A DNA stretch of 64,000 nt, from contig OZ287087.1 in assembly GCA_965645245.1 (NCBI GenBank), positions 372,001 to 436,000 of the forward strand. The letters run 5' to 3'. Both the position numbers and the translations under genes were made by a program. Origin of the DNA: Massalongia carnosa (taxonomy: Eukaryota). The notes beneath the pieces are model-generated. The model searched no databases, was not told the DNA's origin, and was given only the letters and a program-made list of their open reading frames with translations. Below are positions 9,942-55,551 of the stretch, in pieces; position 1 is the stretch's first letter; the number at the start of each line of letters is the position of its first letter.

Positions 9942-12461
9942 TCACACCCAATCCTGCTTCAGAACCGACTTCATCTGAGTATACAGCTGGCGATTCTCGC
10001 TCAGCCATCGCATACCTCCTGGAAAGACCACTTTTCGTAGTGCCTTGATGCAAGGCCGTAGTCTCTTGCAGTGAGCCGTAAATGTGCGGTCCACTTCCTT
10101 GTCGAACCTAGCTTCTTCTAGCACCTTGCCTGTTTTGATTTCGGCAAGCTCCATCGTGGGCTTGTAATTCCACGTCTCATACTCTGTTTTGTGTCTTGGT
10201 AAGCTCGGCCCATTCCAATGCGCGCAGATCCAGAACAGCACCCAGAAGAACGACTCCAGATCGTGCATAAAACTGTGATCTTCGTCGCCGTATAGGGTAC
10301 CGATCGCCATAAATACTTTGGTGCCGGTCTTGCTTGGGGCCCCGGAAGCCTTTTGCCGATTCAATCTAATGGCCAGGTCGAGATCAATCAAGAAACCATC
10401 GTCTTCTGCAGAGTTCAGCATGATATTCCCGATAGAGATATCACGGTGGAGGATTTTTGCATCCAGCAGCGACTCGTGTCCTTGGTAAATTAGTCAAAGC
10501 TCGAAATGCCAGACATGTCACTCACCGTTGATGCCTCCAAGCAATCCTGTCAGAACTGCTTTTAACGAACTCGCTTCGTAGATGCTCTTTCCAATATTTC
10601 GCATGATTAACCGGCGATGGACTCGATTGCGTTGCGGCTGAGCATCCTGATTGACGCGCGTGTCTGAACATGACCGTTTGGGAGGCGGCATCGATGTTTG
10701 TAAGTAGCTCGACGATCGCTTTCGTGTGGTTCGACTTACGCTGCTGCTCCTATCCCTGCCGGGAGGCGAACCACTGGACGTGGTTGGACTGGTGACCGAT
10801 TCAGGGAGCATAGGCCGTTGTTGTTGAAAAGGATTCCTCCCGGCGTCAGCGCTGAGCCCCTTCCGCACGTTGAGGCAAACATCGTCCATCTCATCCCCAG
10901 AACGTACGGTCTCGTGGTGATAGTATTGCGCCACGTTCTTGACGCCGGCTTCTGTTGCTTCCTTGAGCAGAAGACCTTCTTCGGGTCGTTCTTCAAATTC
11001 CCACGAATCCTTGATCACAACTCCGCTGTCTCGATCGTGTCCGAGAGAACCAATCCAGCACGTAGTCGCCCGACCCACGACAGCAGCTTGTCGCTTGATA
11101 AGCTTATCCAAGCACAGCCGCTCCGTCCGTCCACACTGCTGAATGAGTATATGCCTTTCACCGTCGTCCTGTATAGTCGAGTCGAACCCCAGTTCTTCCT
11201 CGGACATCCATAAATATCCCAAGAATACCGAAACCAACAACTGTCCGTCCTTGTTCACGTCGAATGGTGTGGATCCTACCACTCCTAGTCGGTCGAGTTC
11301 CCATAACCGCATAACGGAACCGCAGAGGGTAAAGCCCAGGACGAATCGGCGGGTATCTTGCGCAGTGAATATCTCCCGAGCGTATCTCACGAGATCGAGC
11401 CAAGTACTGTTGTAGTTGTCCTCTAGCGGATTACTCTTCAGCTCGCCCGGGATGAGGATGTGAGACCAGTCAAAACTGTTACGGTGACTGTCTTTCCGCT
11501 CCATGTTAGAAGTGTAGGCCAGGCCTACGTCCAATTTTCGCCTGCTAACGGATCCAGGAATCGGCGTGTTTGGGGTGGTCACGCAGCAACGACGCTTCGA
11601 CGGACGGAAGCCCTGTTCTTCTGCGAACAGCACGAACTGGTCGATCTGCCGGCGGAGGAATTGTAGCACCCTTGACTCTTCGCAGCCCTCTGGCCAGTCC
11701 AGCCAGCCAACGCCTGCTGTGAATAGCGGCGAATCCGCGTCTTTACAGTTCTGAAACACAGCTGTCGTCATGTCGTGAAGCTGGGAAACTTGCCCAAAGA
11801 AGGTATTGAAAAAATCGGGGTGGTCTAGTTGCAGATTGTCCTTCACTTCGCCTTTGAGTATAGGGTCAACATCCTTCCTGAGGTCGGACGTGTCTACAAA
11901 GGTGCCCGTAGTGAAATCTACAAAGGTGCCCGTAGTGAAAGTCCGGGGCGTCTGCTGGAAGGAGGTGGTAAAGGGCGGGCCGGACCGAGGAGGGGTTTTG
12001 GGTTCCGCGGCGAGCGTGGGAGCTGTATATGAGGACAAGGCCGAGGTGACTGCGTTATAGACGTTATCCCAGATGAGCTCGTCGTCGTCATTGTTGAGCA
12101 CCGCCTTTAGGAGAGGAACGATCTGTTCGATGTCGACGCTGCCCGAGTTGACCGCCGAACTCAATGTTATCAAATCGCCAAAGAGGTTTCCCTTATCGTT
12201 CTTGGAGGGCAGCGAGCGAGATGCTGGAAGGCTTTGTATGGCCAATATCAGATCAAGCAATAGATTCTGAAGAACTATTGGAGTAAGAGAAGAATCGTGA
12301 GTTCGGGAGACAACGGTACCTTCGCCACTGATATGCTGCAACGCGTCGGAGAGAGGGATGTCTAAAGCATTACACGCCGACGTGAAAGACTTGCGAAACC
12401 CAGTCAGTCCATAGCCGATTGGTTTTATTTGAACAATCTTCGTCCTCGACTCATCTGTCAT
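9942..12461 (-). CDS. Fungal-specific FunK1 (Pkinase_fungal) protein kinase
   Basis: RKLDVG, WSHILIPGELK, RRFVLGFTLCG, GRATTCW, VIKDSW, RVHRRL; intron 10481-10525 (GTGAGT..ACTAAT..AAG) restores GHESLLDAKILHRDISIGNIML; GFLIDLDLA, TGTKVFMA, HDLESFFWV; probable in-frame 45-nt intron near 12275-12320. Confidence 0.92.
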
Positions 12462-12799
12462 GTTGAGAATGTGACGGACAACTCGTTGAATTGTTCATGA
12501 TTAAACACAGCAAGAATATATGTCAAAAAAAATAATTGAGGTTGGCAATAAGATATTGTCAAAGACGGCACTTGACTGACTCTCAGAGACGGGTTACGTG
12601 ACAGTAACAATGATACTTACCATACAAGGACGAATATACGAAACTTCGGCACGCGCGTGCAAAATACGTAATCAATCCCCATTAAATACAGTGCGCCAGA
12701 AGCAAAATTACGTGTATATTACGGTAATTGACCCCCAAATAACCCCCAGGCAAGATGGGGGGTTATTTGGGGGTCATCTCAGTAATTTGCCGATCAAAC

Positions 12800-15698
12800 A
12801 ACAAGCTTAAATACTTGGGAATGGGATTCACTGATGCACATATCAAGGATGAACAGATCTTCACCAAAGTCGGAGCGGACATTGAAAAACAGAATCATCT
12901 TATGCTCAAGGCCGAAGGGATCATTCAAATGCGAGTCGAGAACTTTGAGAACAAAGTTTCAAGATATTGCACTAATGAGCATCACCGACATTCTTTATGA
13001 CATGAGCTTTAAAAGAATGACGGAGCATGAAAGCGCTGTTAAATATTGCGCCGAATATGAAAATGCATTGAACTTCATAAAGGGCATGATAGAAGAGAAC
13101 TCGTAATTGAGCGAAATGGGTGCAGAACAAGTTCTTCAAGGATATTTGTTACGAACGTTTCTGATGTCTACCTACCTCTCATAACTCAACTTCGTCGCGA
13201 CTGGCTCACTGGCAAATCAAATCTCACTGTTGCGTGCAGAGCAATTACCTCTTATTCTGTCAATATGTTTGACAAGAAGGCATTTCATACCAATGTTTCA
13301 AGTAGAAACGATAAGACACCGCCAGGAACTTGCACTTTTTCGGAATGTGTGAGTAAAGGAACACCGCTCATGCACTAGAAAGATACTGGCAAAAGTATCC
13401 TGAGAAACGACCCAAATTTCCTTGGAAGTCAAAAAACAGATGAATGGTTCCTCAAAGAAGGGATAACGTTTGAACCCTCCGCTCCGCATTCTCAGGAACA
13501 GAACGGAGTGTCTGAAAGAGCAGGCAGAACCATCATGGACATGACCAGGTGCACTATTATCAAGGGAGGCATTCCAGACTATCTATGGACAGAGATAGTG
13601 CTAGCAATGGTTCATGTCAAGAATATTAGACCTATCAATGCTCTATCCGACAAAAGCCCATAAGAATTCTATGAATCGAAATCATCATCTCTAAACCATC
13701 TAAGAGTTTTGGGATGCACTGTCTATGTTCTTATTCATAAAGAAGAACGGAAAGGCATCAACAGCAAATCGGCTAAATTCTCACCTCGAGCTCAACGTGG
13801 TATTCTGTGCGGCTACGATGGATGCACTATTTATCGGGTATTTCTTGAAAAGGATTACAGGGTCATCAGGGTCAAGGATTTACGCATTCATGAAGACGCC
13901 ATCTCCAAAGACCAGACCGAAGTTCCTACATATGATGTTATCATGGCCCCGACATAATCATTCCGTCAGAATCAGTCACCACTACACTTCCCATTCCAAC
14001 TCTTAAACTTGGACGAGGCAGGCCCAGAAAGCACGTTCATATAGCTCACATATTATCTCTTCTATCAAACAAATCATTAACTGAGCCAAATCACGTCTAT
14101 ACTTCCGATGACAGAGATGAAGTAGATCCACTAGTCCTTCTGGCCAGAACACTAGAAAAGGAAGGATCATCAGGCCTGGAAAACTATGATGCACTGTCTC
14201 AACTCGACGTTGCCGAACCACAAAAATATCATCAGGCCATGAATTCTGCATATTCAGAAGAATGGAGTCGATCAATGAATGACGAACATAACAATCTCTT
14301 GGAAAATAATACCTGGGACCTAGTATCATCTGATTCAATAGAGCCTGGCCATATTGTTCTTAGCGGAAGATGGGTGTACAAACTGAAACGAGACATAGAT
14401 GGAAAGATCACACGATTTAAATCCAGATGGGTGGTGAAAGGCTATCTCCAACAGTATGGAGTAGATTTCGAACAGACCAATGCTTTCGTCGTGAAACCGA
14501 TGGCTTTTCGATTGCTATTTGCCATAGCTGCATTTTATGACCTAGACATCGAACAGCTTGATGTCGTGACAGCGTTCCTTTATGGAGTAATTGATCAATT
14601 GATCTACGTCCAGACTCCCAAAGGATATGAAACGCCAGACATGATTTGCAAACTTAATAAGGCACTATATGGTTTGAAACAGTCTCCACGTCTCTGGTAC
14701 GAACGTCTTACTGAGCAAATTAGGACTGTTTAAACTTCAGGCAGATCATAATATCTTTTCCACCTCCGCTGGCATTAAAGGGCCCATTGTCACCTCATTT
14801 GTTGCCGATATGAACATAATCGGCCCGAAAGGCTCTCCGATGATTACAGAGGTCAAAAAGCAACTCAATATCGCATTTAAAATGGTAGATATTGGTCCTA
14901 TCAGTCATTATCTGGGTCTAAAAATAGAACGGAATCGCGTTAACAGAACAATCAAACTCTCTCAGTCTGCCTATATTGAAAAAGTCCTAGAGAAATTTCA
15001 TATGCAGAACGCAAATATCTCTACTACCCCAATGAAAGAAGGCAGTCTTTTCAGAAATGACTCTCAGGCCTCTGATAAAGAAATCAAACAATACCAAGCG
15101 ATAGTTGGCTCCATAATGTTCGCTATGATAGAAACACGACCAGACATTGCCTTTGCAACATCAGTAATCAGCAGACATGCCAAAAATCCTGGCAAAACAC
15201 ACATGGAAGCCGCCAAAACTATCCTCAGATACCTTAGTGCCACCAAAGACAGAGGCATTACCAATGGTGGAGGTGACATGTCCGTACAAGGATATTCCGA
15301 TTCAGACTGGGCCGGAGACAGGGAAGATCGCAAATCCACCTCCGGTTATATATTCGTGCTAAACAATGGACCTATCAGCTGGTGTTCCAAGAGACAGAAA
15401 ACCGTCACATTGTCATCTACAGAAGCAGAATATATGGCACTCACCTTGGCTGCTAAGGAAACCATATGGATACGCTTATTGATGACTGAACTCGGCCTGA
15501 TAAAGACGGATGATGCCTCTCCAACAGTGAACGTACTAAAAAGGGAATGTGCTATAGCGCTAAAAGGCGACAATCAAAGTGCAATCGCACTAGCCAGCAA
15601 TCCTGTTTTACATTCTAACAAAACACATAGACATTCAGCATCACTTCATCCGAAACGAAGTCATCGATAGACGAATCAACCTATCCTATATCCCTTCG
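12800..15698 (+). mobile_element. Degenerate, internally deleted Ty1/copia relative of copia-A (copia-B), LTRs not seen
   Basis: gag relic, QNGVSER integrase, RT (FKSRWV, KALYGLKQSPR), RNase H (GYSDSDWAG, STEAEY). Confidence 0.88.
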
Positions 15699-20496: not shown

Positions 20497-20877
20497 TGTC
20501 ACGGTTCAACCACATCCACCCAAGGCCAATCAAAGGAAAGTACGGCATCTGCCGGCGCACTAACCGCTTCCGTTACTCAACCCTTTTAGCAATCATAGGG
20601 GCAATCAACGGAGGTCTGAAAGGACTGAAAGGGACGCATCGGAACGACCTTCTAACGCAAACACAAATAGATGAAAGGGACAAAGGGCAGAAAGACTGTT
20701 TGACCAAACTGTTCACTTATTGATGAAGACACAAGCAGCTGGATCGGGCCAAGTGATTATCTATATAGACTCCTAGAGAGGGCACCCTTTGCTTGTTTTC
20801 TTTCAGCATCTTTGATATTTTCTAGTGCATAGCTTCCCAGTAGATAGTCAATTCCACAACCTGGTTGAACCGTCACA
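20497..20877. mobile_element. Solo LTR (family S2)
   Basis: TGTCACGGTTCAACC...GGTTGAACCGTCACA; TSD GTTCT/GTTCC; partial inverted copy 40408-40601. Confidence 0.88.
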
Positions 20878-33652: not shown

Positions 33653-34987
33653 TTAGTCATCGTCTTCATCGATGACTTTCTCCTCCACCACCTCTCGAAT
33701 AGTCACAGCCATTTCGCGTTCTTTAGCTGCTGATAGCTTTCCTGCAAATGAACTTACAGTCGTGTCGCCTTGCACGATGGGCTCGACATGCAAAATATCC
33801 CCTATCTCAAGCGCAAGCGCACGAATCACGCTCCCGCGCATCCACTGACCCGGTGTTCCCCAGATTTTTCCCATTTGGATTTTTTGGGAATCGTTTTCAC
33901 AGCCGTCCACCATAAACCGACGACGGCGAAAAAGTGTAATTAGACAAAGAAAATAAAGGTTTCGCTTGAGAGGTCGAGCTTCGGTTTTAAACGTCAGTCG
34001 TTTATTGTTAAGATCCCGATAGAGTGGACCGTTCAAGAAGACGTGCATGGACAACAAGGACTCATCTAGCACGACCAACTTCAATTCGTTCATCGATTCG
34101 TCATCGGGCACGATCACAATTCGGCCATCATCTAAATGCCCCTCGATGCTCGAATATAGAATGAGCCCGTTCTTGAAATCCCAGATGGCTTTCCAGCCTT
34201 CGTCCAAAGGCAATCCGAAAATATAGGAGGCGTTAAACTCTCCAATGCCATATGGCACAATGTGTGCCACTGTCGTGTGAGCTTGTTCATGCCAGGCGTT
34301 GGTAACGGGACACCACATCAACGGCAACGGCAGATTCGTCTTCGGTGCGTCGTATTCGGGTGAACCCTTCTTCGGGGTAGAGGCATTGCGTACCAGATTT
34401 CGGAACTGTTCCTGGTCGTTGTTATTGCGAGCTCCCGGCTTCTTGAACTTGGCCCCGGCAGGCTCGGGGAGACGATCCACCAATGCCCCCAGGTAAGCCT
34501 CTCCGATGCGCGCATGTGTAGGATGGGAGAGAATTCCATATTCGAGTTTCACGCGATTTCGGGCCAAAGCTGCCCGTTCTTGGAGCAGAATGGCGTCGAG
34601 CTCTTCGATGCCGCTAAGAAGTCGTTTCATCGTCGGCTTGTCTATGGATTTGGTTTCGTTGAGCTTCCTCAACACATTTCGGCAAGATTTGTGATGCATC
34701 GCTAAATCTTCCAACAGCGGCTCTCGATTTGCGACATACTCTTTGGCGCGGCTTGGGCTAAATGACTCAAGAAGCAACTGCGATGAAGCGGACGCGGTTC
34801 GTATTCTCTCATTCAAACGATCCCTCTCATCCGCCATTTCGCTGCTTAGATGGCGAAACCCAGGTTCAGGGGATGTTGAGAAGCGTTCTAACGGGTCTAC
34901 AAGGGCCATCGTGAGGCTCTCTCGCTGTTTGCGGCGTTTCTCAAGTCTATTACCGGCGGAGCTTCCTTTCACGGTCGGTGAATCCAT
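33653..34987 (-). CDS. Fungal HNH-family endonuclease domain protein (444 aa)
   Basis: N-terminal coiled coil; FRNLV, WCPVT, AHIVPY, NGLIL..IE..LDDGRIVIVP, DLNNKRLTF..RP..LYF. Confidence 0.8.
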   Translation of the reverse strand: MDSPTVKGSSAGNRLEKRRKQRESLTMALVDPLERFSTSPEPGFRHLSSEMADERDRLNERIRTASASSQLLLESFSPSRAKEYVANREPLLEDLAMHHKSCRNVLRKLNETKSIDKPTMKRLLSGIEELDAILLQERAALARNRVKLEYGILSHPTHARIGEAYLGALVDRLPEPAGAKFKKPGARNNNDQEQFRNLVRNASTPKKGSPEYDAPKTNLPLPLMWCPVTNAWHEQAHTTVAHIVPYGIGEFNASYIFGLPLDEGWKAIWDFKNGLILYSSIEGHLDDGRIVIVPDDESMNELKLVVLDESLLSMHVFLNGPLYRDLNNKRLTFKTEARPLKRNLYFLCLITLFRRRRFMVDGCENDSQKIQMGKIWGTPGQWMRGSVIRALALEIGDILHVEPIVQGDTTVSSFAGKLSAAKEREMAVTIREVVEEKVIDEDDD

Positions 34988-36334
34988 CTCTGAATTTCTT
35001 AATAAGAAGCTGAGAAAATAATAGAAGTTGAAAAGAAGAAAAAAGAATTCAAGAGGTTTATTTGTGAGATTTTCGTCTCAGTATAACCAACAATGAGAAG
35101 CCCAAGAGTTGTTTGCAGACGAAAGCTTTCTACTTCTACGTGAAAAAAATGATCGTTTCGTAAAAGGAGTGCAAGAAGATCTAATACTTGCCTCAATTCA
35201 AATATGATTAGAATCGGTTCGATTCCTGTTAACGTTGACCTATTGAGAGGATGGAAGTTTAGCTCTCTCTAGTTATCATGACCAATAGTGCCGAAGTCTA
35301 ATTATTTTGATCTCATGTGATGCGTGCCTTAGATTGTTCTAGTTGGAAAAACAAAAGTCATAACACATGCTACGCAGAAATATCCTTCTGTGATTCGTCA
35401 AAAAAACAATACTCTTAAAACCCAGTAAAGAATTGACACATGACGAGAATTTTAATCAGCAATCTCATTTAAAGCTTAAGGATTAGTTTCCGAAAAATTG
35501 ATATTATGTGAATGTTTGCAACGGTTCAATCAGACTCTATCTACTGGATACCTACCTATTCATGAAGAATCTCAAAGACGCAGTTGTAGGTGAAGATATA
35601 CACCAGGTATGACTAAACATAACACTTCCCTAAGTAATCAGGTTCTGTATCTGTGTCCTATACAGTCATGCTTTAACTGTGTTCTGCTTAACCTTCGGTC
35701 TATGGTTCGCAGAGTCGCAATCACGCTTCGAGGACCGAGGTAAGTATACCATGCTCGACGGTCAGGATAGTCAGGTATCTAGAAGGTCAGGAGGATAGAA
35801 AGATAGGAAGTAAGATAAAAATGATCGAACTGTAGCTCTTGTTTTTTTAATTTTTATTAAAAGTTTTTAAAAACATTCTATGCTAAATGACGGTTGATTT
35901 GTAAAGTGTCGCTTAGATGACGTTAAGCCTTGGTCATTGAATTTGTCGAATGTTCTAGATTGCTTTATAGTCAATGCGATCATCTGCAATTGGAGTTTTT
36001 TGTAAAACTATTTTTAGTATTAAAAATCGCAGACTGCGAAGACAGATTTAATTTATGTGTCAACATGACGAGTTCTGATATAAAACTCCCTTCTATGACC
36101 CTTATCGGTGCCGTTACCTTCGCTTGCGCTTGGGGGGGCTTTTAATTGGATGAATTGATTTGAATGCTTGAATTTGATTGGGCATGGGAACGACACAGGT
36201 CAGCCCGGGCAGGCCTAGGCACGTGACTCGGGGTCGGTGCTGAGGTGAGAACCTCATCTTCTAGGCCCGAGGCGTCTGCTGACGCTCAACGATCCGATAG
36301 ATGATGCCCGACGGCAGTGCCCGACGGCGATGAT

Positions 36335-37498
36335 CTAGATGGAGGTGCCCGGCGGCGCTCCGGATCGATGCCCTGGTTGACCTGTACGCCCAATGGAATG
36401 CCCAATTGAGTAGGGGTAGGAGTTTGTAGGATTCGTCTCGGCGACGACAGCACGTGGGACTGCCAGAGGGATGCCTTTTTGAAAACTGAGGTTCAAATTG
36501 AATAGTGAGGCCTGGGACGTCTGAAAGTATAGCTGAAACGCGTTTGATGACCATCTTCCGAGTCTCTGAATACTCTCATCCAGCATCCCGTGGTCGGCGG
36601 CGTGTTGTGCTGCTCCTTTTCTGAAGCTGTGTCCCGAGTATGCCGAGTCGTTGATGCCGGCGGCTATCAGTCTCTTTTTCAGGGATGCTATGACGGAGGC
36701 TCTGGTGAATGCGGTGCCGAGACGAAAAAGCGGGGATGTAGATGGCTGAGGATCATTTCTGAAAAGACGCCGTAGTGCTGTCACGGGGCAAGTGCTCTCA
36801 TTGGTCGCTGCCAGCACTATCTGAACTCCTGAGTGATTTGTGTCTGTTTTGCTTCTTTTGAGACGTAATGTCGCGTATTGATCGTTCTCGGCGAATGAGA
36901 TGTCACCTCGTGTAGGTTTCAATCTCTGAAAAGATGTCTTCTTACGATCGGCGACAGTGTAGGTGATTTCCCCGAGTCTGAGGAACCCTGCCCATGCAAC
37001 TTTGAATGTCGCGTCGATGTTGAGGTCTTCGGCCGAATGAGCGGGAATACTGGTGATTTTTGTCAGTAATTCTTTTGAAATGGGTAGGCGTCTTCTTTTT
37101 GTCTGAGAAAAGATCCTTTTCCCCCTTTTCAGCATCAATTGAAGTCTCGGCCCCTCGAATGGGGTGAGGCCGTATCCTCGGTCTACATGGTATGATCTGA
37201 GGCCGGCGAGGTAGCTCGCTGCCGTCTCTGGTTTTATCTTTCCCTGCTTGGGTGTGCCGCCCCCGTATAGTCGACCGGCTAGCCATTCCTCGAGGGACTC
37301 GGTTGTTGCAGGCCACGACGTGCGTCCCGTCGTCGCGCAGAATGCCTCGTATGAGTCGATCGCCGTCCCGTACCCTTTTCTCGTGTCCGCCGAGTGTCCG
37401 TGCCAGACGAGGCGTTTTACCAGGGCTGACCCTGGTGTGGAGGATAGGTAGGTGGAGGGAGGTTCATCGAATTGTATGGGTTCTGCCAATGAGGGCAA
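36335..37498 (-). CDS. Tyrosine recombinase of YR retrotransposon
   Basis: Catalytic set intact: FLRLGE, RSKTD, CPV, GHSFRKG, LGRWSS, QLY; ORF begins at TTG and overlaps pol by 82 nt. Confidence 0.93.
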   Translation of the reverse strand: MPSLAEPIQFDEPPSTYLSSTPGSALVKRLVWHGHSADTRKGYGTAIDSYEAFCATTGRTSWPATTESLEEWLAGRLYGGGTPKQGKIKPETAASYLAGLRSYHVDRGYGLTPFEGPRLQLMLKRGKRIFSQTKRRRLPISKELLTKITSIPAHSAEDLNIDATFKVAWAGFLRLGEITYTVADRKKTSFQRLKPTRGDISFAENDQYATLRLKRSKTDTNHSGVQIVLAATNESTCPVTALRRLFRNDPQPSTSPLFRLGTAFTRASVIASLKKRLIAAGINDSAYSGHSFRKGAAQHAADHGMLDESIQRLGRWSSNAFQLYFQTSQASLFNLNLSFQKGIPLAVPRAVVAETNPTNSYPYSIGHSIGRTGQPGHRSGAPPGTSI

Positions 37499-39120
37499 AA
37501 GTTAGCCAATCTTTCATCATCAAAACGTGACAGGGCATCTGCTAGTCCATTGGAAGTGCCACTGATCCATTGACAACGTAGTACGATGTCCCACTTTGCA
37601 GCTATGGACAGTATTTCTCGTAGAGGCGCGTTGGCCGGTCCCTTGAGGGTTAGATTCGTGAATCCTGTGTATGCTGTGTTGCTGTCGGTAAAGACAAGGA
37701 TCTGTCGATGTCGCCATGTCGGCGCCCATTTCTGAAGGATTAGAAGGATAGCCTCGACTTCTCGGACGTTTATGCTCGGTGATTCTTCCTGATTGAGGAC
37801 TAGGACTCGGGCCCTACATGCGTTTTTTTGATTCACGAGCTCGTTGTCTTGTTGAAAATAGCCTCCGAGACCCGTGAGGCATGCATCCGTATGCACCTTG
37901 ATCGTGTCTCGTATTGACGTCTCGAAGAAGACAATACCGTTGAAGTGCACTAAAAGTTTGTTCCACCAGATGAGATCCTGTCTGACCCATGTGGGAATTC
38001 TTCTTTTGACCCGACGATGACTGCCCGAGGGAAATGAGGCTATAAAATTCCAGAATAATCGTAAGAAGACTCGGCCCAATTTGACTGCCTGTGCGCAGAA
38101 GCTTAGGAAGCCCGCTATTGACTGCATGTCGCCGAGGCTGATTGTCGTCTCGTTTAGTGCCTTTGTAGTGATGATTCTCGCTTTTTCCAGCTTGTCCGCT
38201 GGCAGACGAATAAGACTGTTGATGGTGTCGACCTCGAGTCCGAAGACTGTCGCTGTCGTTCTCTCGGCGTCTTTTGAGTCGTTTCTCGGGATGCCGAGAA
38301 TGTCGGTGAGAATGTTGTAGGCTTTTGTTTCTTGGTGGAATCGTTCTGACGATGTCTCGGATGGGAAAATTGCAACGAAGTCGTCTAGATAGTGATGTAA
38401 TCTCCATTGTAGAAAGGATTCCAAAATCCAATGAAAGCCTTCCGCAAAAAGATTGAAGATGAACGGGGCCGTCGACAGTCCGAACGAAAGGCATGTCTCG
38501 GTGTAGAATTCGTCATTCCATCCGAAACCCAGAAGCCATTGATGATGAGGTGCGACGGGAACGTTTCGAAAGGCGTCTTTGACGTCTCTTTTCACTATGA
38601 CAGCACCTTTGCCCGCTGACAGAATCAATTGAATAATGTCGTCGAGTCTGGCGTATTGTAATTTGGATGCCTCTTCTGGAATGTTGTCGTTGACTGATGT
38701 TTGATTGGGATGAGACAGATGATGAATGCGTCGCCATCCTCCGTCATGTTTCGGGACCAAGCCGAGGGGGGAGGCCACAAATGGCTGACTCGGGGCGGCT
38801 ATTCGTCTGACTCGGCCCTTCCTGAGGTCCTCTTGAAGCTTATTCTCGATCGTTTCCGGGTCCTCATTCGCTGATGTCAGATTTTTTTCGATCCGAAGGA
38901 TGTCTGTGGGGCCTTCGTATCCGATTTGTACTCCGAAACGAAGGATCATGGGCAGATGGACTCGGACGGGGCCCGGATACTCTTGAAGTAGGGTTGCCCA
39001 TGCGGACGGTACGAGGGGAGATGGGCTGTCTTTCAAACGCTGACGAGATGCGTCTACGAGTTGAAACGAAGGGATTGTATTTGGTCTGATTGGTGCAGGT
39101 AAGCAGGGATGGGACGTCAT
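37417..39120 (-). CDS. Reverse transcriptase/RNase H (DIRS type)
   Basis: SPLGLVPK, RRIHHLS, DVKDAFR, LSFGLSTAPFIF, YLDD, HTDAC, TDS, ADALSR. Confidence 0.95.
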   Translation of the reverse strand: MTSHPCLPAPIRPNTIPSFQLVDASRQRLKDSPSPLVPSAWATLLQEYPGPVRVHLPMILRFGVQIGYEGPTDILRIEKNLTSANEDPETIENKLQEDLRKGRVRRIAAPSQPFVASPLGLVPKHDGGWRRIHHLSHPNQTSVNDNIPEEASKLQYARLDDIIQLILSAGKGAVIVKRDVKDAFRNVPVAPHHQWLLGFGWNDEFYTETCLSFGLSTAPFIFNLFAEGFHWILESFLQWRLHHYLDDFVAIFPSETSSERFHQETKAYNILTDILGIPRNDSKDAERTTATVFGLEVDTINSLIRLPADKLEKARIITTKALNETTISLGDMQSIAGFLSFCAQAVKLGRVFLRLFWNFIASFPSGSHRRVKRRIPTWVRQDLIWWNKLLVHFNGIVFFETSIRDTIKVHTDACLTGLGGYFQQDNELVNQKNACRARVLVLNQEESPSINVREVEAILLILQKWAPTWRHRQILVFTDSNTAYTGFTNLTLKGPANAPLREILSIAAKWDIVLRCQWISGTSNGLADALSRFDDERLANFCPHWQNPYNSMNLPPPTYPPHQGQPW

Positions 39121-39165
39121 GAATTCAGCTATTGAAGCTATTCTACTGCCTCCTGCACCAACCCC

Positions 39166-40179
39166 CTATTTCTTCGTTGGGCATGTCTTCTGGCCATGCC
39201 CAGCCGCGCCGCACGATTTGCATTTGTGCTGTCGGTAGCACGACGGCCAGGTGCAGGTGCCGCTGTTGTACTTGTCGCAGATTTCCCCCGCTGCCTTCTC
39301 GGCCCTCTCGGCCCTGTCTCCTCTCGGGGTCGGTCGTCGGGACGGCGGGGATCGTGAGCGGCGACGGCGTAGGACTGTGAGGGGGGTGCAGAATCGAGCT
39401 TGGAATTCGTCGGGCATTTTCCATTGGGATGCGTCGGATGGCTGAGACGCGATGATGTGGGTGTGGGTTTCGATGGCGAGGGGGAGGACTGCTTCCTGCC
39501 ACTCGTACACCTTGGCCAGCGTGAGGATTTTTCCGTGGAATGCCGACATGGTGGCGTGAAGCTGTTGACTCGATTTCCCGAAAAGACTGACCATGATCGA
39601 GGTGTAGTTGATGAAGCTCTCGGTCCAGACGTCATGAACTGTCTTTCCGAAATCTTTGTAGGTCCCGGATGCCTTTCTCAACCTCAAGGCGCCGTCTTCG
39701 ATGCCGATGCGGTCTTGATCCTTGTATGACTCGTATTGCATGCCGTGCATGTGTCGGAGGCGGGAGAGGTTGATGGCTTTGAATTTATTTGAAAAGAGCT
39801 TGATGATCTCGTCCTGTGGTAGGCCCGCGAAACGGGGTGCTATGCTTCTTACTTCGAGAGGGATCTCACCTAGGTCCTCGTCGTCATCGCCGACGACACG
39901 ACTCGGCTTGCCAGCAGGAATGACGGCCGCTATTCGGGCGTCAGATTCTCGGCGCATGCAGTCGATTTCTAGCTGCATTTTTTCCACCTCCTTCTCGGCG
40001 ACCAATGCCTTGGACTCGGCAATTCTAGCCTCAGCCTCGGCCGCCTTCGCTTCCGCCTCGGCTTTCTTCTTTTGTAGGGCGAAGATTTGATTGGATTGGG
40101 CCTGCGTCAATCCGACAATCTCCTGGGGGTCGGGGACTATGTCGTCCATCAAGGTGCTTTGGGAACGGGTGTTCGTCAT
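39166..40179 (-). CDS. Gag-like protein of YR retrotransposon
   Basis: ATG at 40179; coiled coil; C-terminal CDKYNSGTCTWPSCYRQHKCKSCGAAGHGQKTCP Cys/His fingers. Confidence 0.85.
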   Translation of the reverse strand: MTNTRSQSTLMDDIVPDPQEIVGLTQAQSNQIFALQKKKAEAEAKAAEAEARIAESKALVAEKEVEKMQLEIDCMRRESDARIAAVIPAGKPSRVVGDDDEDLGEIPLEVRSIAPRFAGLPQDEIIKLFSNKFKAINLSRLRHMHGMQYESYKDQDRIGIEDGALRLRKASGTYKDFGKTVHDVWTESFINYTSIMVSLFGKSSQQLHATMSAFHGKILTLAKVYEWQEAVLPLAIETHTHIIASQPSDASQWKMPDEFQARFCTPLTVLRRRRSRSPPSRRPTPRGDRAERAEKAAGEICDKYNSGTCTWPSCYRQHKCKSCGAAGHGQKTCPTKK

Positions 40180-40407
40180 TGGGAGGTAGGGGCACCGAGA
40201 CAACGTGAGGTCGACGACGAGTCAGTGAGATTGGAAAAGCAGCAAGCACTGACAGCGAGGTAGGGGCACCGAGACAACGTGGGGTCGACGACGAGTCAGT
40301 GAGATGGATGAGGCCGAGTGAGAAGAAGTGAATGAGGAAAGAATTTTCAGAGGGTGATTCTTAATTTACTTTGACTCAGGGGCCTCACGTGACATAGAAC
40401 CATCTCA

Positions 40408-40601
40408 TCTGTCCTTTGTCCCTTTCATCTATTTGTGTTTGCTTTAGAAGGTCGTTCCGATGCGTTCCTTTCAGTCCTTTCAGACCTCCGTTGATTGCCC
40501 CTATGATTGCTAAAGGGTTGAGTAACGGAAGCGGTTAGTGCGCCGGCAGATGCCGTACTTTTCTTTGATTGGCCTTGGGTGGATGTGGTTGAACCGTGAC
40601 A
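40408..40601. repeat. Truncated LTR of family S2
   Basis: Reverse complement of about 20497-20692; ends GTTGAACCGTGACA. Confidence 0.85.
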
Positions 40602-41595
40602 TTCTGTAGAAAATTCAATTCTTAAACTTTATTCTAATTCTTTGTATCCTCCCTCTCCATACTCTTCGAGACTTTAGATTTCGAGCTTCAAGGTGATTTG
40701 ATAGCATGTTTTCCGACAGTGAATATGCAATTTGCTATTTCGATGAGCATATCTGTGCCAAATGTAAAAGGAATTGAACTTACAATTTGCTCCAAGAACG
40801 GCGGCCAGGATTTATAAAAACGACCGTTCTCGCGCACAATTACCACCACATCAGCGTCACAAGCTTTCCGAGCTCGTAAGCCTTCTTAAACAAGCAGTGT
40901 TATCTTCTTCGCATTATCTAGCTTTGCATTTTGGTATCGTTGATCATAATACTGTGTTTTAATAATCTTTCGAGATTTTTTAAAACTATTAGCTCGTAGA
41001 GCAATGTGTATAGTGAGCAAGGAGGGTCTGAAAAAGCATTTTACAATAAGACTGGGGGGGGGGTCCCGAAAACGATTTCAATCACCGGGGTGTGGAAGAA
41101 GTCGAGAACGACAAATACTGCGCTAAAGCAACGCCCATGTATGCGCGTTAACCCGTATTCATTTAGTTTGAGGCGTATTAGAGATACTGTGTTATAGAGC
41201 CATCTCTTATTCCATTTGAAAGATTCTGATCGTCAAATGGATACGCCTGTTTGAAACGCGTAATTGATGTAATAATAACTACATTTGCTTGACCACTCAG
41301 GTTTAGCGTGAGCCTATACTGCCCTCTACAGTGCCTCTTAGAACCACTCTATCCCACGACTCTTTCAAGAGTAACTACACCGAATTGGCCTCGTGCTAGG
41401 TTGCCGAAGCCATGTACAAATTGCCCACCATTCTTATCAGTGAACAGACCTATCCTGAGGGGACCGAAACCTCCCTTACGTACCCGCCGGCGACCTGAGC
41501 GCCAGCTACCTCCGCGGTGCTCCTTCACTCCGTCTCTTCGTCGCGAATTCGTAACAAGCAACGTATATATCTAAAATAGCTAAACTCCTTCATTT

Positions 41596-50108: not shown

Positions 50109-53100
50109 TGTCGGACCGTTCTTATTGATCTGGAAAATGATGTTCTCCTTGTCTATCTAAACTGGAAATTCTAGCTAGCTATATAGACCATTTCGCCACA
50201 TTCTTTCATAATCTAGATATCTTCCAGCCACTTCTATTTACTAATAGATCATTAGTGATCCGGAACCTATGCGAGGTACAATGCTTTGAAATCATTGAGT
50301 ATTAGAAATCAGATATATGGCATAGAAAGAAATAGCATCTGAAAGATCGAGGCCTCGGTTATTAGTCCGAAATCACGTGCTTTTCCTTCAACAGGATCTT
50401 ACTTCGGGAATTGGCTTGAACAACGGTCTATTAATATCGACATACCCCCCCAGATTTAGCATACTAAGCTGAAGCTGCTTCCTGACCTTGATTAGCCAGT
50501 ATGACTGATATGTCAGTCAAATGCAGCTGTTTGATGAAATCGTCAAGTTTCTGACGAGGTAAGACCTTGGTAAATCCGTCGGCAGGCATTTCCGCTGTGG
50601 GCATCCAACTGACGTTTATACGACCAGCTTGAACTTCTTGCCTTAGCCAGTGACGATGTATATCCACATGCCGAAGCTTAGTATCTAGCTTCAACATCTC
50701 TTTATCTAGGATCCTGAGGGTCTGGCGATTATCGCACCGAATGTGCAACTTTTCCATGGGATTGAACCGAATGGCTTGAAAAAACCGTTTCCACCACATA
50801 GCTTCCTTGGCGGTCCGAGACAGGGCTAGCAACTCGGCTTCAGTGCTCGATGTGGTGACCGTGGCTTGTTTAGCTGCTCGCCAGTCTATTGGTCCACCAT
50901 ACAGCTGAAAAAGGTAACCATCGGAGCTTCTTCGAGTCAACTCATCATCAGCAAACGCTGCATCGCTAGCACACATCAGAATGTCAGTTTTCTGATGACC
51001 GTTATATTCTATAGCCAGGTTTTTAGTCCCATTTAGATAAGCAATAACCCGATCGGCCGCAGACAGATGATCCGGGCACGGGTTTTGTAAGAATTGAGCT
51101 AATTTTGCAGTTGCAAATGCTATATCGGGCCGGGATATTACCGCTGCGAAGTTCAATGAACCTACCCGTTGCTGGTACGCATATATACGTTGACTGTCTG
51201 CTTTTTGCTCGTTTTCATTGGCTGGAGGCACCACTGTCAGTGGTGTTTTCGCGGTTTCCCCGTGCTGATTAAATTTCGCAGCCATTTTGGTAATGTATGA
51301 GTCCTGACATAACCATATCTTCTTATTTTCTCGGTCTCGGGTAATCCTTATACCGAGAAACCATTTCAATTCCCCTAGAGCATGCATTTCGAATCGTTTC
51401 AGGAGAGCTTTCTCAAATTCTTGTAATTTGTCCGAATTATGCTTCCTGCATATGACCACAATGTCATCGACATAGAAGAATAGGATAATCCACTCATTGG
51501 CAAATAGACAGTTGACCCCTGGGACTGGCGCTAGTCCGAGTTCCTCTAGGGCCATGGTTAGGAGCTTATACCATAGAATCGGTGCTTGTTTTAATCCGTA
51601 CAGAGCTTTTCTAAGCTTCCAACAGTATCCGGGCTTGTCAAAACCTTCTGGACACTCACAAAAGATTTCCTCATCAATCGGGCTATTTATGAAAGCACTG
51701 ACCGCATCATACTGATATCAAGGTCAAATGCAGCTGAAATAGCCATTAGAGCTCGAAACGTTCTCGCTGCCAATGTTGCAGCATACGTATCTTGCTGAGT
51801 CATCTGAAGATCTCCTCGTACACATAGACGGGCCTTGAATTTCTCAACATAGCCGTCGGTGTCATGCTTATACTTAAATACCCAGGTGAGTGGTATCCGG
51901 TCCTGTCCCTGAACTTTTTCCACTAGCTCTTACGTACCACGCTTTTCAAGCTCGGTGAGCTCTTTGATGGCCGCTAGCTGGAATTCCTGCGAAAAACGGT
52001 GATGGAGCATCTGCCTCCAATATCGGGGCTCCACCGGGATCTCATCCCGATGGAATTTCTTCAAGGTTTCGACCTGTGGCCGTTCTAGGCCGACCGAAAA
52101 CGCTGCATGGAACGGGGTTAACTTGCTGACTGATGCCAGCGCAATTGCATATGCCTGTTTCCTTGATCTAGTGTTCCTGGCAATTGATTCATCCGTTGTC
52201 TCTACCACCCGAGGCGTCCGTCTCGGCCTAGCCGACTGTCTCGGCTGGCTCGGTCCGTCCTCGGTTGATTGAACACCTGGCATTCCTTGAACGTCCGGCT
52301 CGGAGCTTATTTGAACGTCCGATTGCAGAGTCTTTTCCAAACCATCACGCTCCGATGTCTTTTCAGGGGTAGGTAAGTGAGGATTGTTTTCCATATCGGT
52401 ATGAGGAAACATCGTCTTTTCTGACGTTTCTGTTTCACTAGGTTGATTGGTTGTTTGGTCCAATCTCGGACCTACCTCCTCATCGTCTTGCTCAATCATC
52501 ACTCCTGCAAAGGATGTTTCGGGCACTTCCAACACCTGAATCACGTTTTCCACGGTTATGTTTAATAAATGTCCTATATCGAGCTCATTGGGCTCATAGA
52601 ATCTTGTCTTATCAAACATTACATCCCTGGTCCGGATGACTTTCATACGGCTGGGAATCCATATTCGAAAGATGTTAGTGGAGTCGTACCCCACCAGGTA
52701 TCCAATAAAAGCCCTTGGTTCGAGCTTCTCTTTCCTGGGAATCACCTGATTAAGCGGGAACGCTCGACAACCATACGGCTGCAGGTGAGATAGTTTCGGT
52801 TTTTCCCCGGTTAATTTATCTATTGGTGTTTTCCACCCTAGTATCTTCTTCGGGGTCCGGTTATTTAGATAAGCAACCGTTTTGAATATTTCTGGCCACA
52901 TACTAGCTGGCAAATTTGCTGCTATGCGCAGGGCCCGCGCTCGGATCACCAGTACCCCCCCAGATCGCTCGGTTTGACCGTTTTGTGCTGGAGTATATGG
53001 GGCCGATCTTTTGGTGGTGATACCTCTCATTTTCATGAACTCGGCGAATTCTAAGCCGAGGGTTCGCTCGTCGTCTGTTCGAAAAAACCGAACGGTCTGA

Positions 53101-55551
53101 TCGTATCTAGTCTTGGTCATTTTCAGGAATTCCTTGATCACCCCTAGAGCATCATTTTTTCGAGTATGGGTGTAGACGAAGTCCATACTGGTATAAAAAC
53201 ACCTGAAGTGGCTCACCCAGTTGTCCCCGTTGTATGCTTCAGTCAGCTGAATAAGGTCATACCCTACTCGACCGAGCGGAAAGTTCGCTGGCTCTTCCTG
53301 TCCCGAACGTCTCGAGATCAGGTGATGGGCTTTGGTCAGCGAGCATGTCTTGCATTGCATCGTATTCGGTGCTGTCTCGAGTACTGTTACCTTAACTCCA
53401 TCTACCCCCTTTTCGAGGTGAGAAATTTTTTCCGGTCCAGGATGACCGAGCATCTCGTGCCACTCTTTTCCCGTCGCTATCAATTCCGGTTTCGGACTGG
53501 TACTGGCCGCAAATGCTCTATGCGACCTTACCGTTGGTGGGTTGTCTTCTATCACCCAATGGCCCCCTATTTGCTTGGTGCGGCAGAACGTCTTTCCCTT
53601 CTGATGCAGATGAGAATGTTCGGTGTCCCAGTGAACCCCCTTCTTTGTTAGCTTGCTTAGGCATACTAAATTGGTGAAAAATCCTGAGGATAGCGCCACA
53701 TCTAGAAGCCTGATTGGCACCGGCCCATGAGGTCCTTGTGCCGTGATATCTACCGTTCCATATCCATCTATGCTATAAACGGTTTTTCCGGCCATGAGCT
53801 TGTCATCAGTGTTTGCTATACGCGTCAACTGAAACCGCTCCGGATCATTGCATACATGAATGTCTGTTCCGCAATCCAGGGTCCAACAGTTGACCAACCT
53901 ATGTGGCTCCGGTTCGGAAGCAACTGCAAACGTTGAAAACGATCTAGGTGGTGCGGCAGGCAAGATCGAGACTGATGATCCGGCAGGCACTATCGAAACT
54001 GCAAATGCTGCAGTATCGGATTTTTCTGAAGACGATTTCTCTTCCTTTCCGACTTTTTCGACTTGTTTTGCGTGCTTATCTCGGACCGACTTGATGATCT
54101 TATCTAGCCGATGATTCTTAGCTAGCTTTTCTTCTATTATTTTCTCAATGCTCTTGTCCGGGGTCCACCCCTCTGGCCTCAGGTCCTTGAGCAAATAGTA
54201 GCAATCCTTGAAGCGGTGCTTCTTGCCACATATGCACTTCTTCTCGGAATTTCCTTGGTCCGAGTTAGATCCCTGAGCTGATTTTTGACTCATTGTCGAG
54301 TTCGATTTTTCTTGATCTGATTGGTCAGATCCTTGAAATGTTGTAAATGCCGAATGGGTAGCCCCCTTGCTATCTAGGGCCCTGGCGGTTCGCAAATGAT
54401 TCCGGAATTCTTCCAGAAGATCCCTTATCGAGAAATCTTCCTCATTCCGATGAATTTTATACTGTAATATGGCCTCTCTACCGGCCACAAACGAACCGTC
54501 CACTGTCCTTAGCGCATTCAAGAAATCATAAATGCATCTATGTCCCTGAACGTCCGGAATTTTCAGTCTATCCGCTTCTGCATAGACTTTCTCCCATTCC
54601 AACAACCAGTGATCCAGTTGCTGACTCTTGGGGGCACGTTGTAGGTCCTTATATTTCCGAATAACTTCGAGTTCTCGGATCCGGTCCGTCGGTGCAAGCC
54701 TCTTCTTTAGAGCTGATAACTTCTTATATCGAGTCCTGTCCCCTGAGATATAAAAAATTGGTCCGATCCACGGTGGTCAATATATATGCTTCCAGGTTTT
54801 TTAGGGCTTCGGTCTTCTCCCGATACGTACGCAAGTCTTCTCTATGATCCTCTCTTCGCAATATCAGATCCCGTCGCTGTCCCTCGGTTAAGTCCTCGGA
54901 TGACACGGCACCTGCTTTCATGGAAGAGAAGGTAGGGGTAATGGGTCTGATTGGCTCGTCTGGCTCAGGTTTCGCCAGGTCCACATACTGCTCGATTCCA
55001 CCTCGCTTGGCCATGGACTCCACGATAAGGATCCATTCATCCCAGTCACCGGGCTCCTTGAGGACTACCACGGTTTTCTGACTAGAAGCGGGCAAGGTAG
55101 AGAAAGACATCTTCTGTTCGATTGTCCAAAGAAGATGGAAGAAGTAACAATAAAGGTCAATAAGAACTTGGGGATACTGATCGATGAATGCAGCGATTAG
55201 GAAGCCGGGCTCATAACTGTCGGACCGTTCTTATTGATCTGGAAAATGATGTTCTCCTTGTCTATCTAAACTGGAAATTCTAGCTAGCTATATAGACCAT
55301 TTCGCCACATTCTTTCATAATCTAGATATCTTCCAGCCACTTCTATTTACTAATAGATCATTAGTGATCCGGAACCCATGCGAGGTACAATGCTTTGAAA
55401 TCATTGAGTATTAGAAATCAGATATATGGCATAGAAAGAAATAGCATCTGAAAGATCGAGGCCTCGGTTATTAATCCGAAATCACGTGCTTTTCCTTCAA
55501 CAGGATCTTACTTCGGGAATTGGCTTGAACCACGGTCTATTAATATCGACA
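50109..55551 (-). mobile_element. Full-length Ty1/copia retrotransposon (copia-C), recently inactivated
   Basis: 334-bp LTRs 50109-50442 and 55218-55551 (3 differences), TSD GGAGG, PBS GTTATGAGCCCGG, PPT GGGGGGG; gag zinc knuckle CICGKKHRFKDC, protease LDCGT, integrase WHEMLGH..CKTC..QNGQTER, RT YVDD, RNase H; lesions: frameshift about 54727, stop 51930, frameshift about 51715. Confidence 0.97.

Follow-up and report, generated by a model that had tools for sequence, protein, structure and literature searches.

To our knowledge, the means by which the tyrosine recombinase (YR) of DIRS, Ngaro, PAT and VIPER retrotransposons is expressed is largely unexplained, overlapping or 'frameshifted' YR frames having been noted without a mechanism. 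The env gene of avian leukosis virus (ALV) and Rous sarcoma virus (RSV) is expressed from a spliced subgenomic mRNA with its donor inside gag, and takes the gag AUG together with the first gag codons. The present study concerns a stretch of 64,000 nucleotides (nt) from Massalongia carnosa (contig OZ287087.1, positions 372,001 to 436,000; hereafter the window), which contains on its minus strand a single copy of a 4316 nt YR retrotransposon (36092–40407) that, as judged by gene content and order, is Ngaro-like (order DIRS). Like the Ngaro-like elements described in the accessible portions of two surveys of fungal YR elements (PMC3783388, PMC13465315), it has the order gag, reverse transcriptase (RT)/ribonuclease H (RNase H), YR, has no methyltransferase, and has its YR in a frame other than that of RT; in the same portions, the surveys give the frameshifted YR no expression mechanism and make no mention of splicing. 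No report of natural splicing as a means of YR expression was found in the open full-text literature, including what is accessible of PMC3783388, PMC3266345, PMC7192593, PMC8547959 and PMC13465315, key subscription papers aside. On the evidence of splice signals conserved among relatives and of joined proteins in databases, it is likely that a fraction of the genomic RNA of this element is spliced from 39870|39869 to 37483|37482, with the gag AUG driving synthesis of a 485-residue Gag(1–103)-Glu-YR protein.

All features of the element are given here in window coordinates and lie on the minus strand. The gag open reading frame (ORF; 39166–40179) comprises 337 codons from the ATG at 40179 plus the TAG at 39168–39166, and specifies a C-terminal CX2CX4HX4C zinc knuckle. 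It is followed in the same frame by the RT/RNase H ORF (37417–39165; 582 codons plus the TAA at 37419–37417), for which Pfam returned RVT_1 at an expectation value (E) of 3.4e-12, above the cut-off, and RT_RNaseH at 5e-05 (23.8 bits, short of the 24.8 cut-off), identifying RT and RNase H of the long terminal repeat (LTR)-retrotransposon type; no methyltransferase domain was detected by Pfam, and the gene order is that of Ngaro-like elements. The YR frame (37501–36338; 388 codons, stop at 36337–36335) lies in the −1 frame, opens directly after the TAA within GCTAAC (37506–37501) and overlaps the RT frame by 82 nt in this copy.

The candidate 5′ splice site, TAG|GTGAGA (39864–39872), would be cut at 39870|39869, one base into gag codon 104 and hence in phase 1, the proposed coding part of exon 1 (39870–40179) consequently comprising Gag residues 1–103 and the G of codon 104. 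At the start of the YR frame, a candidate branch-point motif CTAAC (37501–37505), whose A stands 19 nt ahead of the acceptor G and whose TAA closes the YR frame upstream, precedes a candidate 3′ splice site CAG| (37483–37485) in the arrangement CTAAC-N16-CAG, again in phase 1. Exon 2 would run from 37482, its coding part (36335–37482) completing the junction codon with two bases and continuing through 381 YR codons to the stop. The proposed intron (37483–39869; 2387 nt) takes in the gag core and stop together with the RT/RNase H ORF except for its final 63 nt and stop codon, which fall 3′ of the acceptor; it also contains a TTG codon (37496–37498) at the place where some relatives carry ATG. 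Joined in silico, G + AA gives GAA in the YR frame and an ORF of 485 codons (103 Gag, one junction and 381 YR codons). An earlier note on this DNA had proposed a YR frame lacking an AUG until about codon 122, and an intron of about 2.39 kb, with this branch point, acceptor and donor, this phase and a GAA junction, that would fuse 103 Gag residues to YR: all the coordinates and arithmetic hold, the first in-frame ATG being codon 123 (37133–37135), and the spliced frame is indeed open throughout.

In the window alone these motifs carry little weight, since the element has four GTRAG, fewer than the 6.2 of shuffled sequences, and the CTRAY-N10-22-YAG at the YR start, although the sole one on the element's sense strand, compares with 5.9 expected from shuffles; the donor/acceptor pair is within chance, and its significance comes from relatives. 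The presence of one such 3′ motif where 5.9 are expected may separately reflect a depletion of cryptic 3′ splice sites. Two other splicing schemes were rejected. The alternative GTRAG donors fail because that at 39852 is in phase 0, giving the wrong frame, while that at 40388, in the 5′ untranslated region, would leave YR without an AUG; a short intron between RT and YR finds no conserved GT after the RNase H ADALSR motif, from which only about 20 nt remain before the branch point. The splice sites and the TTG were unchanged in the contigs of other sequencing runs that covered them (X1, X7 and X9 for the TTG). The 39870>37482 joint was not seen in the contigs of runs X1, X7, X8 and X9, which show presence, not absence; with contig records of up to 84–195 kb, these runs look like DNA.

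On the donor side, a gag match was available in 18 related loci plus the window, and G|GT(G/A)(A/C)G was found at the aligned place in 16 of the 18 and in the window, in every case splitting a Gly codon behind its first base and thus in phase 1; of the two exceptions, L016 lacks the relevant part of gag and L028 has G|GTCAGG. Clustering by script yielded 12 groups, reduced to 11 non-redundant gag lineages since L007 equals L005 bar a 3 nt deletion. Ten of these carry G|GTGAG and the eleventh G|GTACG. The Gly codon at the donor is GGT in all 11 lineages, GGT being the rarest Gly codon in these gags (16/127), and the following Glu codon is GAG in all ten G|GTGAG lineages. By way of control, at 18 invariant four-fold-degenerate RT residues compared across 13 lineages (27–75% identity, mean 42%), the third base was never invariant, the maximum being 10/13. 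In the Gag alignment A2, G104 and the aligned start Met are the only invariant residues of the N-terminal half, E105 comes close to invariance, and the 103 residues before G104 vary freely in length and sequence among relatives. The structure model of Gag has a long helix (residues 18–86), a disordered stretch (87–107) within which the donor falls, and a core that is folded from residue 108 onward; Foldseek comparison of this model with PDB returned nothing at E ≤ 0.001, and the profile of alignment A1 found no match among PDB sequences. Of 13 cases spliced in silico, 12 kept an open frame, either of 334–567 codons or running off the contig, and the introns measured 2357–2608 nt; the thirteenth (L012) has stops in the gag N-terminus. 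No donor was assignable in the distant families L024, L045 and L062.

For the acceptor side, the 63 related metagenome loci and the window formed a set of 64 sequences, from which the 40 with a placeable YR start were kept, representing 28 lineages at 85% DNA identity. Loci L015, L023, L025, L029, L031, L032, L036, L037, L053 and L054 were excluded on the grounds that they did not reach the YR start or could not be aligned to it, although L029 does in fact cover it; also left out were six loci near-identical to L045, L010 (with an internal deletion), L021, L028 and L041, the decayed L060 and L061 with their in-frame stops, and L062 and L063 at about 25% identity. At the YR start, all 28 lineages have CTRAY and, 13–19 nt further on, a phase-1 CAG, the distance being 19 nt in 24 of them. 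Among the left-out loci, L028, L029 and L041 also carry the pattern, L060 and L061 retain CTAAC without the CAG, and L010, L021, L062 and L063 are without the pattern. The accessible part of a study of Fusarium core genes gives CTRAY as the motif of 91% of branch sites and names YAG|R as the fungal 3′-site consensus (PMC5677156). The RT-frame residues lying over the branch motif vary between Ala, Thr and Ser (GCT/ACT/TCT) and then between Asn and Asp (AAC/AAT/GAC), and yet are always encoded as NCT plus RAY; such fixation of CT-RAY over changing residues indicates that the constraint is on the bases C-T-R-A-Y rather than on the protein. Conservation 5′ of the CAG, where the motif CPHWQ occurs, tracks the RT codon positions (0.78/0.88/0.65) and 3′ of it tracks the YR frame (0.49/0.60/0.42), the switch of frame occurring at the CAG; the RT frame itself ends 0–510 nt beyond the CAG by way of a variable, unconserved tail. 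A conserved 5′ site in gag with a fitting phase and a conserved branch and 3′ site at the YR start, two of the marks of a spliced subgenomic mRNA, were accordingly both found.

The protein that such a joint would deliver is a complete recombinase. The YR structure model (predicted local distance difference test score of 83.9) is ordered from around residue 10 and Cre-like with two domains, and Foldseek matched it to Cre over both (E = 3e-11, ~325 columns). Pfam detected Phage_integrase in 13 and a SAM-like N-domain in 11 of 33 members of the YR family, the window YR itself scoring below the cut-off at E = 0.0016; H291-x-x-R294, W317 and Y325 are invariant or nearly so, as in a tyrosine recombinase. 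The invariant residues T40, Y44, L70, W73, S103 and H105 all lie upstream of Met123. Most YR homologues recovered by protein search start with M two residues before 'LAEP/LAGP', and the DNA at this apparent start codon in the 28 lineages reads GTG in 16, ATG in five, TTG in three, CTG in one and otherwise in three, so that most of these N-terminal Ms are gene callers' renderings of alternative starts. The point is illustrated by P0001, 99% identical to the window YR, which begins with M where the DNA reads TTG. The TG of the apparent start opens a conserved RT-frame Cys codon, and the base ahead of this TG occupies the unconstrained third position of the RT codon before. As the TTG is unchanged in the X1, X7 and X9 contigs, and the family stands at ~300x against ~1x for the flanks in X1, the state without an ATG is the normal, working state of the family.

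Further evidence was provided by three database proteins (P0164, P0232 and P0022) that are contiguous fusions of a Gag N-terminus with YR. Residues 1–62 of P0164 (ENA) match residues 73–134 of Gag P0291, named by NCBI as a hypothetical protein of Elaphomyces granulatus, up to '...DEDDEG', whereupon that Gag runs on 'EIPPE'; from G62, P0164 matches YR P0079 from its residue 6 (after 'LA') at 90% identity. The Gly shared at this join is what a split G|GN codon predicts, and the ORF is contiguous since its contig, at 2222 nt, is too short for a 2.4-kb intron. P0232, from a 9.9-kb Logan contig, aligns to residues 46–101 of the window Gag and then to the window YR from residue 5 (47% identity, 3e-50), which places its join between gag ~101–103 and YR residues 5–7; the gag end of this join is approximate because the gag alignment is weak (best E 0.003–0.05, single comparisons). 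In P0022, from an 11-kb Logan contig, the N-terminal part resembles Gag, closes with an acidic patch and Gly, and is joined to YR 36 codons further down; without a significant match to the window gag (best E 0.13), this protein is presumed from these features to use the same gag spot, and in the window a phase-compatible AG for such a join occurs at 37376–37375 without CTRAY before it. A search of the same species with Gag residues 1–103 returned two proteins, both Gag-like and neither fused. The intron-less fused copies most likely arose by reverse transcription of spliced RNA, which keeps both ends of the element. Taken together, conservation of branch point, acceptor and donor phase in homologous elements, which the earlier note had named as a check on its proposal, was observed (28/28 acceptor lineages, 10/11 donors as G|GTGAG), and the fusion of Gag to YR by splicing is supported both by these signals and by P0164 and P0232.

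Several observations weigh against this interpretation. The indels and late frameshift that P0164 shows relative to P0079 mark it as decayed DNA and not a transcript, and a deletion at the DNA level might in principle account for its join; P0232 and P0022 lie on contigs (9.9 and 11 kb) that are also more likely DNA. The join in P0022, 36 codons deeper in YR, means that the acceptor is not uniform. Conservation at the protein level also applies to the Gly-Glu pair encoded over the donor and to the CPHWQ motif preceding the acceptor, the sixth base of the donor is A and not the consensus T, and a 2.39-kb intron is far longer than the 42–529 nt given for Fusarium core-gene introns in the accessible part of PMC5677156. 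The ATG 13 nt before the acceptor in five of the 28 lineages would allow initiation at YR's own codon in those cases, and for the window copy the splicing of its own RNA is deduced from genomic sequence.

The principal competitors of splicing are two other ways of translating the YR frame. Programmed −1 frameshifting within the RT/YR overlap, the alternative offered by the earlier note, would yield a Gag-Pol-YR polyprotein and reduce the splice-like motifs to side effects of coding; it accords with the −1 position of YR relative to RT in nearly all loci, with the passage of constraint from the RT to the YR frame inside the overlap, and with the occurrence of RT-RNase H-YR in a single frame in other Ngaro clades (P0177, P0201; accessible part of PMC3783388). 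No conserved slippery site emerged, however, the window overlap having no X XXY YYZ heptamer and only two of the 28 lineages a canonical one, at unrelated places, while in L018 the RT stop directly follows the CAG, leaving an overlap of 22 nt with no slippery run. Since frameshifting would also fail to account for the fixed T and C of CTRAY above changing residues, for the constancy of GGT GAG in gag and for the joined proteins, it is regarded as very unlikely. Separate initiation of YR at the near-cognate TTG (37498–37496), on unspliced or internally promoted subgenomic RNA, is improbable: an NTG does occupy the same place in 25 of the 28 lineages, five of them with ATG, and gene callers start many homologues there, but its TG is fixed by the RT-frame Cys codon and its N is the variable RT third base, G in most lineages. 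Full-length RNA moreover presents many AUGs upstream of the NTG, the YR-frame residues between NTG and CAG follow synonymous changes of the RT frame, and the joined proteins are without those residues.

Two further possibilities involve a truncated or an unexpressed recombinase. Initiation at codon 123, which is the first ATG of the YR frame, would produce an N-terminally truncated protein without most of its N-terminal domain, but the 116 residues between the junction codon and Met123 are conserved and form an ordered helical N-domain matching that of Cre and the SAM-like Pfam domain; as the first Met occurs anywhere from six to 293 residues after the junction among lineages, with three having none in the stretch read, this start is scarcely credible. 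It might alternatively be supposed that the splice-like motifs have no role, the fused proteins being random internal deletions and the YR of this copy not expressed, and each motif is indeed common alone, as the four GTRAG in the element attest. Against this stand the invariance of synonymous sites among lineages whose other synonymous sites are saturated, the ending of two independent deletions (P0164 and P0232) at the same two codons, and the retention of an intact YR by a high-copy, near-identical family, and the proposal is accordingly thought highly unlikely.

In the splicing mechanism favoured here, the element would be a recently active, high-copy fungal YR retrotransposon whose full-length RNA serves as genome and also as mRNA for Gag and, via readthrough of the TAG, for Gag-RT/RNase H. 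Splicing of a fraction of this RNA would remove the 2387 nt holding the gag core and all conserved RT/RNase H sequence, leaving the unconserved 3′ tail of the RT/RNase H ORF in exon 2, and would thereby be the route by which the ATG-less YR frame is translated. The resulting RNA of ~1.9 kb, translated from the gag AUG, would specify the long N-terminal Gag helix with its acidic linker (residues 1–103), the Glu junction and the complete two-domain Cre-like recombinase. The length of the intron and a modest donor with its non-consensus sixth base may keep splicing partial, the shared Gag N-terminus may bring YR to Gag assemblies, and the intron-less copies in other genomes would be retro-copies of spliced RNA. 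A tentative extension, considered somewhat less than an even prospect, is that the Gag helix acts as an assembly tag placing YR in particles next to the complementary DNA, with the 1.9-kb spliced RNA constituting a mobile non-autonomous mini-element copied in trans; were this so, the intron-less Gag-YR copies (P0164, P0232 and P0022) would be a recurrent by-product, or parasite, of the expression strategy.

Readthrough of a gag-pol stop codon is known in systems of the murine leukaemia virus (MuLV)/tobacco mosaic virus (TMV) type, and the present element likewise has a single in-frame stop between gag and RT, here with a stem-loop 5 nt downstream. The gag TAG (39168–39166) and this predicted stem-loop together span 39084–39168 and probably form a readthrough signal, the TAG being in frame with RT; the stem-loop has a predicted energy of −34.5 kcal/mol (z = −3.99), and none of 200 shuffled sequences was as good. 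Of 13 loci, 11 have a lone in-frame stop dividing gag from RT; in relatives the sequence after it is often CAA-YYA, which is known as a readthrough context. Most RT frames of relatives are without an ATG. The single stop, its context and the structure are all sequence-level indications, with which the readthrough postulated in the earlier note agrees. The best reading would be that three proteins, namely Gag, readthrough Gag-Pol and spliced Gag-YR, are produced from one promoter.

The ends of the element were set by the contigs of other runs, which depart from the window at 36091/36092 and 40407/40408–40411; only 243 nt of it remain 3′ of the YR stop. In X1, contig depth was ~160–540 within the element and ~0.6–4.5 in the flanks, and this high copy number, together with near-identical copies in the contigs of four other runs, points to recent activity of the family. 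No split direct repeats of the form A1 ... B1 A2 B2, and no repeat shared by the 5′ and 3′ ends at word sizes 7–9, were found in the window copy; split direct repeats are present in the relative L006, where repeats of 110 and 104 nt between tandem units (2825–3368) are arranged B1 .. A2 .. B2|A1 as Ngaro-type split direct repeats. Head-to-tail units were observed in L006, L007 and L023. Assignment as DIRS1-like was rejected given the lack of long inverted repeats and of a methyltransferase domain, and the position of YR last in the order. A scan of viral contigs with alignment A1 found no relative.

A number of additional features were recorded in and around the element. Two 49 nt direct repeats, 98% identical and 74 nt apart, lie just 5′ of the gag ATG (40183–40231 and 40257–40305), and run X8 has a 17 nt insertion at 40182. 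One X7 contig joins 36392 to 40233, skipping 3840 nt and leaving a mini-element of ~476 nt in which 175 nt from the 5′ side meet 301 nt from the 3′ side; this joint does not have GT..AG ends and is consequently not the proposed splice. The 5′ end of the element adjoins a separate high-copy repeat of 195 nt (40408–40602; ~295x in X1), a 93 nt part of which recurs inverted at 20599–20691 with 97% identity, and which may be a preferred target or another element. The window as a whole is fungal and rich in transposons, with a FunK1-type 'Fungal protein kinase', an HNH_2 protein and Copia-like elements; the features at 50464–54776, 13936–15670, 10518–12494 and 33653–35077 are Copia-type elements (RVT_2, retroviral SH3-like domain), the FunK1 gene and the HNH_2 protein.

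A conserved intron spanning the gag core and the whole RT/RNase H domains would give one fungal clade a mechanism of YR expression, and, if it operates as proposed, would be an unusually long and functionally required fungal intron. The ratio of recombinase to Gag to Pol would then be set by splicing, as retroviruses do for env, and the recombinase is predicted to be Gag-tagged. A practical consequence is an annotation rule, whereby G|GTGAG in gag combined with CTRAY-N13-19-CAG at the YR start recovers the true YR, which is at present called from false NTG codons. Distant relatives P0177 and P0201 (~1220–1250 residues) hold gag-like, RT, RNase H and YR sequence in one open frame, and with RT-RNase H-YR in one frame in other Ngaro clades, the split frame plus intron looks like the solution of this particular clade.

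A close parallel in layout is env of ALV and RSV, which shares with the present proposal one promoter, a donor in gag, an acceptor at an AUG-less downstream ORF and use of the gag AUG; the difference is that here a 103-residue helical module of Gag would be carried over, and onto a recombinase, the host being a fungus and the element not of the LTR kind. Alternative splicing from a donor in gag also generates the co-packaged subgenomic SD' RNA of murine leukaemia virus (MLV), which, according to the accessible text of PMC2925334, keeps both genome ends and can be packaged and copied, in parallel with the intron-less P0164, P0232 and P0022, although it is retroviral and is not known to involve a recombinase fusion. 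Splicing likewise sets the product ratio of a retrotransposon in the Ty1/Copia elements of Arabidopsis, for which the accessible part of PMC5580714 describes a spliced subgenomic gag RNA; whereas that RNA is a gag-only mRNA, in the element described here the gag core and pol would be removed and the last ORF expressed as a fusion.

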